In this document: positions 17,611 to 62,535 of the stretch, one piece after another
How positions within the stretch are numbered: position 1 is the stretch's first letter
Layout: each line of letters opens with the position of its first letter
Sequence record: ON212266.1
DNA: 64,000 nt
Source: Enterobacter phage fGh-Ecl02
Reading direction: 5' to 3' (one strand)
The notes under the pieces: model-generated
Databases searched by the model: none
Seen by the model: the letters and a program-made list of their open reading frames with translations, nothing else
Told to the model about the DNA's origin: nothing
Translations under genes and position numbers: made by a program

Positions 17611-17650
17611 AAATACCCCACACTGGTTTGTATGGGGTATTTAGGAGGGA
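17611..17650 (-). promoter_or_regulatory. late-promoter motif CTAAATAcccc embedded in a hairpin (minus strand)
   Basis: Minus strand reads cctaaataccccatacaaaccagtgtggggtattt then ATG. The inverted repeat is ataccccA / Tggggtat. Confidence 0.5.
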
Positions 17651-18865
17651 TCAGGAAGGGGTGAATTCGTTTACAGGAACTGTTTCAGGGATAGCCAGCT
17701 CAGGGCATGCTGCCTTCATCGGCTCGATGTATGGCTTGCTACCCACAATCCAGAACAGAGTGTTCTCATTGAGCAACTCGGGCTTGTGTTGCTGAACCCA
17801 GGTCATGACCTTGCCTTCATAGCGAGGATGCAACTCAATATCACCCCACTGATATTCCATCAGGTCATTATAACGAACCCAATTAGTGGTATGAAGATCC
17901 CAATGGTGTACCTCAAAGCGAGGAAGCACGACCTCTGGCTCTTCCTTCTGCCTGATACCACTTAGGAGGCCAGCCAGCGAAACGCTCTTAGAGGCATGCT
18001 GAAGTTCCTTCTTGCCGTGTACATAGTCTGGGTTGTCGTGATAGCGACGGGTGAAGTCGACAATGTGCGGCAGATTGGCATGTTTGCCGATGATACGCAG
18101 ACGGCTCTCAATGAAGTCAAGGCGGTTAGGACCGATGCCGATCAGATACACACGCTTCAGATTAGGCTTCGGATGCATTGCCAGCCCGGTCAGAATGCTT
18201 GTGCAAGAGTTGCACGATCCGGCTGGGATAATCAGATCGGTAATATGGTCAGGGATGTTGGCAACCTGCTCGCCACCCAGCATATGGAAGCCAGCGATGC
18301 GCTCAGGGGAGTGGGCTGTATGGTCGAGGGTGATACCATACTCCAGATAATACGCCTTTGGATTCTGTTGTTCGATCAACTTCTTACAGCGCGGCTGGAT
18401 CGTGCTGTTGTAACCCGAGCCGACGAAGTTGAACTCACTACCAAACCAGGCTGACATTGCCACCATGTCGTGGTTCATACAGGTGGTGGGTTTGGTCGCT
18501 CCGAGTACAGTGGTTGTCTTGCCGCCGAAGTGCCGAGAGACTGCTGTCGCCATAGGGGACTGTGGACTACCAACGACAGTGCCGTGGATGATGTCAGGGG
18601 AGCCTCCGGCCTTGAGGTGCTCAACCATCAACCAGATGGCCTGACGGAGTTTGCTGCCGTTGATACCCTGTTGGCCATTCGCGTAATTGGACAACGGTGC
18701 GAAGTAATCTTCACGCTTGAACCAGACCTGCTGATTGGTTTCGGGGTTGACGACAAGTTCGCACGGGGTGTGCTTGAAGAGATAATCTTCCCAATGGACC
18801 AGGTTGCGGTCGAGGGAAAGGATATCGAAGATGGTCTTGTTCATTCTATTTTCTCCTGTAGACAT
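17651..18865 (-). CDS. PLP-dependent fold-type-II enzyme (ACC-deaminase/Trp-synthase-beta family-like) 404 aa
   Basis: 'FKREDYFAPLSNYANGQQGINGSKLRQAIW...GGSPDIIHGTVVGSPQSPMA' matches the KRED...GNKxRK...GxxQSN pattern. Confidence 0.6.
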   Translation of the reverse strand: MSTGENRMNKTIFDILSLDRNLVHWEDYLFKHTPCELVVNPETNQQVWFKREDYFAPLSNYANGQQGINGSKLRQAIWLMVEHLKAGGSPDIIHGTVVGSPQSPMATAVSRHFGGKTTTVLGATKPTTCMNHDMVAMSAWFGSEFNFVGSGYNSTIQPRCKKLIEQQNPKAYYLEYGITLDHTAHSPERIAGFHMLGGEQVANIPDHITDLIIPAGSCNSCTSILTGLAMHPKPNLKRVYLIGIGPNRLDFIESRLRIIGKHANLPHIVDFTRRYHDNPDYVHGKKELQHASKSVSLAGLLSGIRQKEEPEVVLPRFEVHHWDLHTTNWVRYNDLMEYQWGDIELHPRYEGKVMTWVQQHKPELLNENTLFWIVGSKPYIEPMKAACPELAIPETVPVNEFTPS

Positions 18866-18914
18866 TGGCTTATCATAGTGTATCTACAGGAGTATAGAAA
18901 AGGAGAATCTCGGA

Positions 18915-19574
18915 TTACTTCTTGAACAGACGAAGGAACTTCATCATGTTATCCATGAAAGTTGGCTTCTTGGCCTTTTGTTTTACTGGAGCACCCTGAT
19001 CATTCAGAACACGACTGGCCGGAGGAGTAGGTGGTGTCGGCGCTTTCGTTTCACAGGCCGGAACGATGTTCACGTCATGATGAGAAGACTCAGATGTAGT
19101 GTTAACAACATTGTTCTCCTGGACGACAGGCTTGACGAGATTCTTTTCATACTCGCGAGCCATGGCCTGGTACTTCCGATTCTCTGCGTCAAAGTCCATA
19201 GAAACGACTTTACGACGGCGGCGCGTCGCGCTCTCATCACCATAGAAATCGTATCCGTTCTTGACCAGCCAGTGCACAGCTTGGACAAATGAATGGAAGA
19301 TCATGAACGGCTGACCATTGCCCTCTTCAGCAGCGGTGATACCGGAGTAACCCATGAGCACAACCTGACCCTTCACGTCGAGGTCAAAGAATGTGCATTC
19401 ACCGGGCTGGTTCAGATCACGCGGAGCCAGCTGGGAACCACGATGGATATAATTTGGCGACAAAAACTCATTCAGAGTTCGTTTGTTGCCTTTGTATTCA
19501 AACAGACGAATACAGATGGGAGTTGTCAGTTCATGCCATTCGGCTTCGTTGACCCAGATAGAAACATTACGCAT
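18915..19574 (-). CDS. hypothetical protein 219 aa
   Basis: ORF with a Pro/Thr-rich linker and basic C-terminus. Confidence 0.5.
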   Translation of the reverse strand: MRNVSIWVNEAEWHELTTPICIRLFEYKGNKRTLNEFLSPNYIHRGSQLAPRDLNQPGECTFFDLDVKGQVVLMGYSGITAAEEGNGQPFMIFHSFVQAVHWLVKNGYDFYGDESATRRRRKVVSMDFDAENRKYQAMAREYEKNLVKPVVQENNVVNTTSESSHHDVNIVPACETKAPTPPTPPASRVLNDQGAPVKQKAKKPTFMDNMMKFLRLFKK

Positions 19575-19912
19575 TGGTGTATCCTCAAATCAATGGATAG
19601 GGGTTTAACGGTTAAATTTTAAACCATTCTATCTCATTGAACAAATACAGAATGGGAAGGATGGACAAAAGAAAGCCGGATAAGGATATCCGGCTATGCC
19701 ACATCGATGGGATGGGTTGAAAGACTACACGCTTGCACTGGTACTACCCTATGGGAGAGCGCGTCAGGAGTCGAACCTGAAGTCGTCGACGTAGAGAAAG
19801 CTATTTGCATTTCACTATCCTCGCCGCGATTTTCTTAACTTCCTAAACACCCCGATTACGAGAGAGTCGACATGCACATCTTCTAACTCTTCAGGAAGTC
19901 ACGCTCGTAATT

Positions 19913-20001
19913 TGGCGGAAGGTGAAGGATTCGAACCTTCGGGGGCTAAAAGCCCCACTCGATTAGCAGTCGAGTCCCTTAAACCTCTCGGGCAACCTTC
20001 C
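19913..20001 (-). tRNA. tRNA-Ser (GCU), type II with long variable arm
   Basis: Minus strand ggaaggttgcccgagaggtttaagggactcgaCTGCTAAtcgagtggggcttttagcccccgaaggttcgaatccttcaccttccgcca. Anticodon loop cuGCUaa. T-loop GGTTCGAATCC. Confidence 0.7.
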
Positions 20002-20221
20002 AATTTGGACGGGCTTCACACCCGATTGAGCATTTGATCTGCTGTAGCCCAACTCCCCGCGCTTCTCAGCGCCGATTGGTTAACTGGCAACCAGTGCCTT
20101 CTGGTTCGATCTCCTGGAACTTTACAGGCTTTGCGCCCGACCATTTCTGGAAGTTGGGGCATCGTTTCCGATGTGGAGTCACCCCATTTTATACACAGCT
20201 GGCTGCAACGCTTACTGTGTT

Positions 20222-20305
20222 TGGTGTGAGTGGATGGATTCGAACCACCGCGCTGTTACGGGGAGATTTACAGTCTCCTGCATTCGACCGCTCTGCCACA
20301 CTCAC
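20222..20305 (-). tRNA. tRNA-Tyr (GUA), type II
   Basis: Minus strand ...ggagaCTGTAAAtctcc... with T-arm ggtggttcgaatccatc and acceptor gtgagtg/cactcac + A + CCA. Confidence 0.65.
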
Positions 20306-20562
20306 ATTTGGTCTGCCGCTGCGTGCTGGGCCACGCTCGAGGACATCGGCCATCCTTCCTCAGCTAATCCACGCAGCGGTAGATTTGTATCAGAGTGTCC
20401 GGTGTAGCAACCCGTGAGGTGCGCACTACTGTAGCCTCTACACTCTGAATTTGGTGGGCGCTACTATCGTCGTCTTCGGATTCCGTTCGGCTATTGGACA
20501 GAGGCTTGGAGCTTGTCGGTCGCGTACTTTATGCCTATTCACTTTCGTTCACACCCATTGTC

Positions 20563-61446: not shown

Positions 61447-61515
61447 TTTGTTCTAAACCTTTGAACAGGGTATGTTAACCGCATACCCTATCCCCTACAA
61501 ATAGAGGACTTTACC

Positions 61516-61860
61516 ATGGCAGCAGACACCAAACTGAACAAATCCGTGGAGATCCCCCACATCGTCAAATTCGAAAAGCCGAGTGAGCGCAAGCCACGCA
61601 AAACGCGCCGCCTGGTCACCAAGCTGGATCTTCTGAAACAGAAGTTCGGCGACCACAGCGTGTTCACTCGCATTCGCAATGCAATAAAGGAAGGGCGAAC
61701 TGAGCTGGAGCTATATCGACCGAACGGTTCGACACGCGCATATCGGACCACTGACGGCTTACTGGAACTGATCCGCCTGAGCGGGATGACGATCGAACCT
61801 CGTTCGTCAGGCACTCCTCTGTGCTCCCTGTACGTAATCGGCAATCTTGGGGCGCTGTGA
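61516..61860 (+). CDS. basic protein 114 aa
   Basis: 'KPSERKPRKTRRLVTK'. Confidence 0.4.
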   Translation: MAADTKLNKSVEIPHIVKFEKPSERKPRKTRRLVTKLDLLKQKFGDHSVFTRIRNAIKEGRTELELYRPNGSTRAYRTTDGLLELIRLSGMTIEPRSSGTPLCSLYVIGNLGAL

Positions 61861-61864
61861 TTCT

Positions 61865-62287
61865 ATGAAGAAGTATATCGTTCTCATTACGGGTTCCCGC
61901 TCAATCACCGAGCGGGATAAGGTATTCGCCAAGCTGGACGAACTCCTCGATCCTCATGAAGTCTATACGTTGATCGAGGGTGAGGCCACGGGTGTCGACA
62001 CGATTTGCCGTGATTGGGCTGAAATCAATTATGTTCATATCACTCCCATGCCGATCCCTCCGAGCTATTATGAAAAGTATGGGAAAGGGATGGGCAACAA
62101 ACGCAATCAGGACATGTTAGACAAGGCATTGGATCTCGTCAGGCAGACCAAGCTGGAAGTGTATCCGATTGCGATGTGGGATGGTTCGTCCACTGGCACC
62201 CTGGACATGATCAACCGTTGCAAGAAAGCTGGCCTCCCTGTGGATATCACTCTAATGGGTAAGCCGAAGACCAAGCGCCTTTTGTAA
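61865..62287 (+). CDS. SLOG/DUF2493 (YspA/DprA-LOG)-like protein 140 aa
   Basis: 'YIVLITGSRSI...EGEATGVDT...WDGSSTGT'. Confidence 0.4.
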   Translation: MKKYIVLITGSRSITERDKVFAKLDELLDPHEVYTLIEGEATGVDTICRDWAEINYVHITPMPIPPSYYEKYGKGMGNKRNQDMLDKALDLVRQTKLEVYPIAMWDGSSTGTLDMINRCKKAGLPVDITLMGKPKTKRLL

Positions 62288-62326
62288 CATATCATAAATA
62301 ATTTGAGCACACAGCGGAGATACATC

Positions 62327-62497
62327 ATGTTTGTCGTCATCAATCTGTTCTGTTACATCTTCACGGCGTACTTCTTGGGCGCGGTAGGGATCGAGACCTA
62401 CAATGACCTGAAGGATGGGGAATACGCCAACCGAATGGTTTATGTCAAGAAGTTTGTTCGTAAGTTCTGGTCCAACTTCGTTTACAAACTACCATGA
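62327..62497 (+). CDS. small membrane protein 56 aa
   Basis: 'MFVVINLFCYIFTAYFLGAVGI'. Confidence 0.35.
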   Translation: MFVVINLFCYIFTAYFLGAVGIETYNDLKDGEYANRMVYVKKFVRKFWSNFVYKLP

Positions 62498-62500
62498 TCC

Positions 62501-62535
62501 CTAAATACCCCCATCATCCATGGGGGTATTTTCTT
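62501..62535 (+). promoter_or_regulatory. late promoter CTAAATAccccc + hairpin
   Basis: ctaaatacccccatcatccatgggggtatttt then ATG 62536. Confidence 0.5.

Follow-up and report, generated by a model that had tools for sequence, protein, structure and literature searches.

In phage T4, the genes e, soc, 49, I-TevI/II/III and segB, and in phage Aeh1 the gene mobE, have a late promoter located in the 5'-strand DNA of a helix in which the ribosome-binding site is hidden (PMC3014915, PMC2988022). Read-through RNA from early or middle promoters is not translated in these cases, and late RNA that starts within the helix is translated (PMC3014915, PMC2988022). The T4 late promoter itself is a TATA box of 8 bp that lies roughly one helical turn 5' of the start site, with a preponderance of A+T downstream (PMC2988020). 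A late-type promoter box, mostly in the form CTAAATA, recurs in a 64,000-nucleotide stretch of DNA from Enterobacter phage fGh-Ecl02 (sequence record ON212266.1), here called the window, and at seven genes the end of the box is paired within a hairpin that also contains the Shine-Dalgarno (SD) sequence. A promoter-in-hairpin, SD-masking mechanism of the T4 e/soc/49/I-TevI type probably explains these sites.

A longer form of the box has been published: CTAAATAcCcc is one of 'two unique regulatory motifs', and Enterobacter phage EspM4VN is stated to have it at five positions (PMC7283392); the accessible portion of that article gives the motif neither a function nor a hairpin. The motif was not identified in the genome papers of Shigella phage Ag3 and phage CBA120 (PMC3121705, PMC3184105). 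From its sequence, the window phage is assigned to the ViI-like Ackermannviridae, Aglimvirinae/Agtrevirus type: positions 44000-60000 have ~97% identity to Escherichia phage AV101 and its relatives, ~90% to Ag3 and ~86% to Dickeya phage LIMEstone1.

Late-type promoter boxes

With at most one mismatch allowed, CTAAATACCCC has 8 matches in the window against 0.61 expected, and exact copies are found at 27744, 30822, 33002 and 62501 on the plus strand (+) and at 17644..17634 and 17149..17139 on the minus strand (-). The CTAAATA core is present in 12 copies against 4.23 expected, a count that was reached in none of 100 shuffles, and 11 of the 12 copies lie 23-42 nt 5' of a start codon on the coding strand. 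CTAAATA differs at one position from the T4 late consensus TATAAATA, which occurs exactly only once, at 7170..7163(-). The genes behind the boxes encode gp6, gp14, gp18, gp22, tailspikes, and orthologues of LIMEstone1 ORF173 and ORF174, both of which are structural proteins confirmed by mass spectrometry.

No -35/-10 pair was found at the late-type (TAAATA) boxes, and the LIMEstone1 record labels the same box, ahead of ORF173, a putative late promoter. The AV101 annotation includes gp55, the gp33 co-activator and the gp45 sliding clamp, encoded outside the region of the window; gp55, gp33 and the clamp have also been reported for Ag3 and CBA120 (PMC3121705, PMC3184105). The placement of the boxes before late genes and the presence of these three factors in AV101 are in keeping with the original prediction, made by inspection of the same DNA, that the boxes are late promoters. 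By analogy with T4, it is reasonable to regard them as T4-type late promoters that would be read by the host RNA polymerase with a phage gp55-like sigma factor.

Hairpins that bury the Shine-Dalgarno sequence

The original prediction had described the box at 17644(-), 27744, 30822, 33002 and 62501 as one arm of an inverted repeat, and all five repeats are indeed strong: from box to ATG, these segments fold at -16.3 to -21.0 kcal/mol (z -4.9 to -8.1), and no shuffled sequence was as stable. Five other sites (23886, 38781, 45292, 49575 and 55828) had been listed as partial copies of the motif that do not form a full hairpin; all of them exist, but 45292 does carry a significant hairpin (z -4.5). 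Two further sites came to light, an exact box that has no hairpin at 17149(-) and a TATAAATA box joined to a hairpin of 11 bp at 7170..7138(-). In all, seven sites have hairpins of -10 to -21 kcal/mol (z -4.5 to -8.1), and folding against shuffles detected no significant hairpin at the boxes 17149(-), 23886, 38781, 49575 and 55828. Each of the seven hairpins includes the final 3-6 nt of its box in the stem. The 3' arm ends 0-6 nt 5' of the ATG at the five sites first described, and at 17610(-) the hairpin also takes in the A of the AUG.

Three of the seven hairpins precede tailspike genes. Site 27744..27790(+) has its box CTAAATACCCC at 27744-27754 and its arms at 27745-27760 and 27770-27785 (-21.0 kcal/mol, z -8.1), with the SD sequence GGGG inside the 3' arm; the ATG at 27788 begins the first tailspike (MANKPTQP...), and the preceding stop codon ends at 27741. 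Site 30822..30865(+), with the box at 30822-30832 and arms at 30825-30835 and 30849-30859 (-17.5 kcal/mol, z -5.5), leads to the tailspike that starts at ATG 30863 (MNPQFNQP...), and site 33002..33047(+), with the box at 33002-33012 and arms at 33006-33015 and 33029-33038 (-16.3 kcal/mol, z -5.2), to the tailspike that starts at ATG 33045 (MTRNVESIF...). Site 62501..62538(+) has the box at 62501-62511 and arms at 62503-62514 and 62520-62531 (-17.2 kcal/mol, z -4.9), and ATG 62536 begins a 242-aa protein that corresponds to the C-terminal half of a phrog_289-like protein. On the minus strand, site 17608..17644(-) has the box at 17644..17634 and arms at 17643..17630 and 17623..17610 (-20.7 kcal/mol, z -5.8); its ATG at 17610 begins a 154-aa protein, the orthologue of ORF173.

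The remaining two hairpins have other arm sequences. At 45292..45324(+), the box CTAAATA (45292-45298) is followed by a weaker hairpin, ATACCTTCA / TGAGGGTAT at 45296-45304 / 45309-45317 (-10.2 kcal/mol, z -4.5), which contains the SD sequence GAGGG and precedes gp14, the head-completion/neck protein (ATG 45322); this hairpin is kept in most relatives and lost in some lineages. At 7132..7170(-), TATAAATA (7170..7163) overlaps the hairpin AATATCCTCGC / GCGAGGATATT at 7166..7156 / 7148..7138, a perfect 11-bp stem (-15.9 kcal/mol, z -6.3) that contains the SD sequence GAGGA and precedes ATG 7134.

Among the boxes that do not have such a hairpin, the exact CTAAATACCCC at 17139..17149(-) (z 0.04) lies 32 nt before ATG 17110, the start of a 152-aa protein orthologous to ORF174. 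The CTAAATA boxes at 23886..23892(+), 38781..38787(+) and 49575..49581(+), none with a strong hairpin, precede the baseplate wedge gene gp6 (ATG 23932), a 1612-aa VriC-like gene (ATG 38822) and the tail sheath gene gp18 (ATG 49624), respectively. The box at 55828..55834(+), before the scaffold gene gp22 (ATG 55862), has a 5-bp stem only, and the SD sequence lies outside it.

A census of 63 annotated gene starts placed on the window, in which positions -45..+3 of each were folded and a 10-nt SD window was scored, set the box hairpins apart from all other leaders. The six most stable of the 63 leaders are all box hairpins, and the predicted unpaired probability of the SD window in box hairpins is 0.00-0.21. 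A stable leader combined with a buried SD sequence was found in 7 of 11 box genes and in none of the 52 others (Fisher p = 6e-7). The other stable leaders, at 15748, 35766 and 43710, are ordinary terminators located farther 5', which leave the SD sequence free (0.60-0.86).

At a distance of ~6-9 nt from the ATG, most genes of the window have GAGGA or GGAG, in many cases as GAGGATAT..., and the hairpin genes have GGGG(T), GAGGA or GAGGG 5-10 nt before the ATG, inside the 3' arm. GGGGU can pair with the 3' end of 16S rRNA through one G.U pair, and GGGG is annotated as a ribosome-binding site in the record of Klebsiella phage Menlow. The G-run of the 3' arm is the SD sequence, and it lies at the normal distance from the ATG, contrary to the original statement that these genes have little or no SD sequence.

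Are the hairpins terminators?

Because a stable G+C-cored stem-loop right after a co-directional gene is also what an intrinsic terminator looks like, the box and hairpin might form a composite terminator-promoter, in which the hairpin ends the upstream mRNA, or stabilizes its 3' end, and the box restarts transcription, insulating each gene, notably the tailspikes, as a monocistronic unit. The orthologous hairpin is in fact annotated as a terminator in the Menlow record, UAU follows each 3' arm, and the tail is U-rich at some sites (62501, GGGGGUAUUUUCUU; Menlow, UAUUUUAUG). The hairpins also stand directly 3' of co-directional genes with no other terminator in between, and early promoters of the same phage are likewise fused to stem-loops.

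A scan of the whole window required a G+C-rich stem and, starting no more than 2 nt beyond it, a T-rich run with 5 or more T in 8 nt. About ten canonical terminators have such a stem and T-run, among them those at 6941(-), 15710/15729, 16628/16649, 19695(-), 23813, 45028, 56727, 58156 and 61063(-), but none of the seven hairpins does, as an adequate T-run is missing. In orthologues the tails are often not U-rich (UAUCUAUG, UAUUACAAAUG, UAUCAAAAUG, UAUUAACAUG). Ordinary terminators of the window lie farther upstream and leave the SD sequence free, whereas the stem of a box hairpin always overlaps and buries the SD sequence of the next gene, and its arm sequence tracks that SD sequence, which a terminator would not need. 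Intrinsic termination was rejected for the seven hairpins on the basis of the scan, and the composite terminator-promoter is an unlikely account of the sites.

Matching of the arm to the Shine-Dalgarno sequence

The sequence after the box is complementary to whichever SD sequence the gene uses, both in the window and at two sites of AV101. CCCC faces GGGG at the five sites first described, UCCUCGC faces GCGAGGA at 7170(-), and CCUUC faces GAGGG at 45292. In AV101, CCUCUGC faces GUGGAGG at 72027(-), where TTAAATAcctctgc...gtggaggtattt precedes a gene for a 264-aa peptidoglycan-binding protein, and GCCC faces GGGC at 61124(-), where GTAAATAgcccata...tatgggctattta precedes a gene for a 196-aa hypothetical protein near gp33 (loci L129/L133/L134). 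The hairpins run 3-6 bp past ATACCCC/GGGGTAT, and these additional base pairs are site-specific in sequence. That the hairpin is a chance by-product of placing a box before an SD sequence was considered and rejected on account of this extension.

Of the six exact CCCC boxes, five have a hairpin, and the boxes of gp6, gp18, gp22 and the VriC-like gene are not followed by CCCC. Because CCCC tracks the hairpins in this way, the 'cCcc' tail of the published motif, whose original description is probably that of Adriaenssens et al. (Arch Virol, 2012), is best read as the anti-SD arm of the hairpin-bearing subset and not as promoter core. A principal role of CCCC in promoter recognition was rejected, as four boxes do not have it and the hairpins that are not built on CCCC pair with canonical SD sequences of the GAGG type.

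Conservation and the level of pairing

Orthologues found through the adjacent protein, a route that is unbiased for the motif, were aligned, and in this protein-anchored alignment neither the box nor the arms (16 nt on the 5' side, 10 nt on the 3' side) vary, whereas four of six loop positions and both flanks do. IMG/VR was scanned for CTAAATACCCC-N4-34-GGGGTAT and orthologue sequences were taken from the matches listed, which carry no statistics and include chance or terminator-like matches on unrelated contigs. Among these matches, Kuttervirus-, Agtrevirus-, Limestonevirus- and Taipeivirus-like genomes keep the arms and differ in the sequence and length of the loop.

Pairing appears to take place in the RNA of the sense strand, because there are G.U pairs on that strand at 27744 and 17644(-), and because the substitutions seen in orthologues (G-C to G.U, C-G to U.G and U.G to U-A) preserve wobble pairing; all of these would be mismatches in a cruciform or in antisense RNA. 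The original prediction had also raised the possibility of a cruciform-capable site at the promoter, and a DNA-level inverted repeat, acting as a cruciform or as the site of a dimeric regulator that controls late transcription initiation, would account for the overlap of the repeat with a -10-like box; CCCC in place of the A+T-rich melting region of T4 might affect opening. The G.U positions stand against this, as do an arm spacing that ranges from 4 to 13 nt and inner arm sequences that differ between sites, which are not features of an operator. Moreover, gp18, gp22 and other major late genes have box-only promoters and no repeat. Control at the DNA level is extremely unlikely.

Proposed mechanism and operon context

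The motif and its placement, the hairpins, the sequestration of the SD sequence, the conservation and the operon context are shown by the sequence analysis, and the T4 mechanism, with an inferred start site, late timing and translational block on long transcripts, would use them as follows. At each of the seven genes, the end of the box and the next 4-10 nt would pair with the SD region of that gene, to which they are complementary. A transcript from farther upstream, whether from an early or middle operon or from read-through of an upstream late gene, would carry both arms and fold (-10 to -21 kcal/mol), and the burial of the SD sequence would block its translation. A transcript initiated at the box would begin ~6 nt past the last A of the box, just after CCCC, and would not contain the 5' arm, leaving the ribosome-binding site free. 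Translation may thereby be made specific to the promoter, and hence to the late period.

When the T4 rule was applied, so that +1 is the sixth base past the last A of the box, just beyond the CCCC run, the predicted late RNA had a leader of 18-32 nt that does not include the 5' arm, as the original prediction had anticipated for RNA started just downstream of the box. The predicted unpaired probability of positions -14..+3, taken as a measure of accessibility, rose between the long and the late transcript from 0.09 to 0.56 at 27744, from 0.01 to 0.59 at 7170(-), from 0.09 to 0.40 at 62501 and from 0.25 to 0.60 at 30822.

The second published ViI-like motif, TTCAAT-N14-TATAAT, has 19 matches in the window against 5.5 expected. 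Its copies at 12053(-), 19641(-) and 60028(+), which are probable early promoters to judge from the motif, stand 5' of the hairpin genes 7134(-), 17610(-) and 62536(+) and point in the same direction as these, and no canonical terminator was found directly before the hairpins of these three genes. Three of the seven sites are probably at the distal end of early operons, a context in line with the T4 logic.

Several observations weigh against the T4-type mechanism or limit its reach. Six boxes of the window are followed by CCCC and so by G+C-rich DNA, unlike the A+T-rich downstream segment of T4 late promoters. The predicted gain in accessibility is small at 33002 and 17644(-), and the gene for the 152-aa structural protein, adjacent to that for the 154-aa one, carries an identical box and no hairpin. 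The tailspike hairpins (27744, 30822 and 33002) and that of gp14 belong to late clusters, and because the transcripts that reach them from upstream would themselves be late, the 'early versus late' logic of T4 is not obviously applicable there; at these genes the hairpin may serve to restrict translation to the gene's own transcript, for insulation or stoichiometry, rather than to set its timing. At four sites, an upstream stop codon is so close to the box (0-6 nt) that the terminating ribosome would melt the 5' arm; the block on long RNA may then be leaky or give way to coupling. Two-sided compensatory substitutions were looked for in the orthologue alignments and none was found, all changes being single and wobble-compatible. 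Since covariation is absent and the arms, held on both sides by the promoter and by the SD sequence, are near-invariant, the structural evidence comes from loop variation, wobble changes and the match between arm and SD sequence. A search of the literature for start-site, timing and translation data on Ackermannviridae phages found none.

The four sites with a nearby stop codon are 7170(-), 27744, 62501 and 17644(-), and at these the terminating ribosome would cover the 5' arm. Translational coupling, in which the hairpin of a polycistronic RNA closes the downstream ribosome site until a ribosome that finishes the upstream ORF unwinds it, would make use of this arrangement. Hairpins are nevertheless present where the upstream stop codon is 36-37 nt away (30822 and 33002), and at 45292, which has no adjacent co-directional ORF, and coupling alone leaves the constant fusion of promoter box and hairpin unexplained. 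As the main function of the hairpins, coupling is quite unlikely; promoter-specific unmasking of the SD sequence remains the preferred reading.

Tailspike modules and recombination

The PeSLs of T4-like phages are short conserved early promoter/stem-loop cassettes that are repeated in the genome and stand at the edges of variable modules (PMC2839356, PMC4122927). The tailspike cluster of the window offers a possible parallel. A 37-nt segment that comprises box and hairpin is identical at 30822-30858 and 33002-33038(+), before adjacent tailspike genes. Homology to the 33045 tailspike locus begins at 33001, one base before the box, in 7 of 11 aligned phage loci and at 32995-32997 in the other four, and the 20 nt upstream of the tailspike homology blocks are unrelated between phages. 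This suggests that exchangeable tailspike modules have the 37-nt cassette at their 5' edge. Elsewhere, the 7170(-) cassette together with its 55-aa ORF is an insertion or deletion relative to loci L146, L147, L151, L152 and L157, the last of which comes from the same contig as a locus that matches the sequence of Menlow, a Taipeivirus.

In the strongest form of this argument, the cassettes of box and stem-loop would be mainly DNA recombination linkers, a late-promoter analogue of PeSLs, that allow tailspike and small-gene modules to be swapped. The breakpoints are equally expected if selection keeps the promoter, the hairpin and the N-terminal anchor domain while the receptor-binding domains upstream are exchanged. 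Three hairpins, those at 17644(-), 62501 and 45292, lie outside variable loci, and recombination requires neither an arm complementary to the SD sequence nor wobble-compatible substitutions. A primary role in recombination is very unlikely, though this reading does not exclude the others. A more tentative proposal, possible though doubtful, is that the cassettes are portable late-only expression modules that each confine translation of their gene to RNA from its own promoter and that also provide a conserved joint for the exchange of tailspike and small accessory genes between Ackermannviridae genomes. If so, they would be the late-gene counterpart of PeSLs and would help to explain how four tailspikes can be shuffled with balanced expression.

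The likeness to PeSLs consists in a short conserved cassette of promoter and stem-loop that recurs within one genome and, to judge from the tailspike homology blocks, may border variable modules. PeSLs combine an early sigma-70-type promoter with a terminator-like stem-loop, whereas the boxes of the window are late-type, their stem is not a terminator and the SD sequence is buried in it. Closer in form are five sites where a strong stem-loop is joined to TTCAAT-N14-TATAAT or TTCAAT-N14-TATTAT and its loop contains the -10 hexamer: 12053-12028(-), 6947-6903(-), 4110-4085(-), 60028-60053(+) and 59767-59792(+). By sequence, these look like the composite early promoter/terminator of PeSLs.

No CTAAATA box precedes the fourth tailspike gene (35766-38399, +), and its G+C-rich stem-loop CCACCCCCATAAGGGGGTGG (35708-35766) leaves a canonical SD sequence free; the gene is presumably expressed from the transcript of the promoter at 33002.

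Neighbouring genes and annotation

The gene layout of the window, as taken from the AV101 annotation, comprises rIIA (1-2757, -), DNA polymerase (12054-15053, -), four tRNAs (19.9-20.9 kb), gp6 (from 23932, +), the tailspike cluster (27788-38399), the VriC-like gene (38822-43660) and a head/tail block from gp13 to gp23 (44-58 kb). Rfam at the gathering threshold detected the four tRNAs and no other known RNA family in the window.

The 55-aa ORF behind site 7170(-) extends from ATG 7134 to 6967 on the minus strand, with a canonical terminator on its 3' side at 6941-6906. The cassette is self-contained, with TATAAATA, an SD-masking hairpin, the ORF and a terminator, and closes what is probably an early operon. 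The protein combines a hydrophobic stretch at the N-terminus with a charged tail at the C-terminus, and is labelled a putative membrane protein in AV101; it may be a membrane protein of the late period or one that times lysis.

A protein of the phrog_289 family ('GTP-binding domain', ~500 aa in the PHROGs profile) is split in the window. A 146-aa ORF (61847-62287, +) matches profile positions 18-146 and the 242-aa ORF (62536-63264, +) matches positions 259-500; between the two halves are a 56-aa ORF (62327-62497, +) and the promoter-hairpin. In-frame ATGs at 62494, 27758 and 33030(+) lie upstream of or within the box and hairpin. AV101 starts the gene of 62536 at the ATG equivalent to 62494, so that the promoter box and hairpin become part of the coding sequence. 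Because the PHROG profile begins at MNAQ (62536), public records that use such upstream starts probably make the protein too long.

Among the IMG/VR matches listed, loci L066, L096, L076, L010, L018, L048 and L057 have the same arrangement of CTAAATACCCC, hairpin and ATG. Their contigs are smaller (5-40 kb), and several of them are lower in G+C content and probably not Ackermannviridae. The downstream proteins include some with GIY-YIG-like N-termini (by eye), a 110-aa protein and one with a DNA polymerase-like N-terminus (by eye). In T4, homing endonucleases are the types of genes that carry the device.

The T4-type mechanism, if true, gives the published motif a new interpretation, with CTAAATA as a late promoter and 'cCcc' as the anti-SD arm of a translational mask. 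It also yields explicit predictions of late start sites for a family of phages used in therapy and biocontrol, for which the searchable literature contains no mapped ones. There are practical consequences for annotation: the same element is a 'late promoter' in the LIMEstone1 record and a 'terminator' in the Menlow record, and the gene starts of some records fall inside the hairpin, or upstream of it with the box within the coding sequence. In tailspike-swap engineering, the box and hairpin are probably best kept with the start of the gene for normal expression.

Comparison with phage T4

The original prediction considered that the arrangement implied unconventional control of transcription or translation initiation, but the same architecture is documented for the T4 genes and for mobE of Aeh1 (PMC3014915, PMC2988022). 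As in the T4 class, the DNA of the 5' strand contains a TATAAATA-like late box, and the SD sequence, the AUG or both are in the 3' strand; the box of site 7170(-) is the exact T4 consensus. The peptidoglycan-binding-protein gene of AV101, in an nrd/primase region, also has this arrangement and recalls the T4 lysozyme gene e. The sites differ from the T4 class in that they belong to an Ackermannviridae phage and have a box that is mostly CTAAATA, and in that the SD sequence is in many cases non-canonical, GGGG(U), and pairs with a CCCC run directly after the box. The device is also used about ten times per genome, tandem late tailspike genes included, and is recognized here from sequence alone. 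Judged by this analogy, the mechanism proposed for the window phage is not a new principle: it is the established mechanism of T4, extended to the Ackermannviridae and to tailspike and structural genes.

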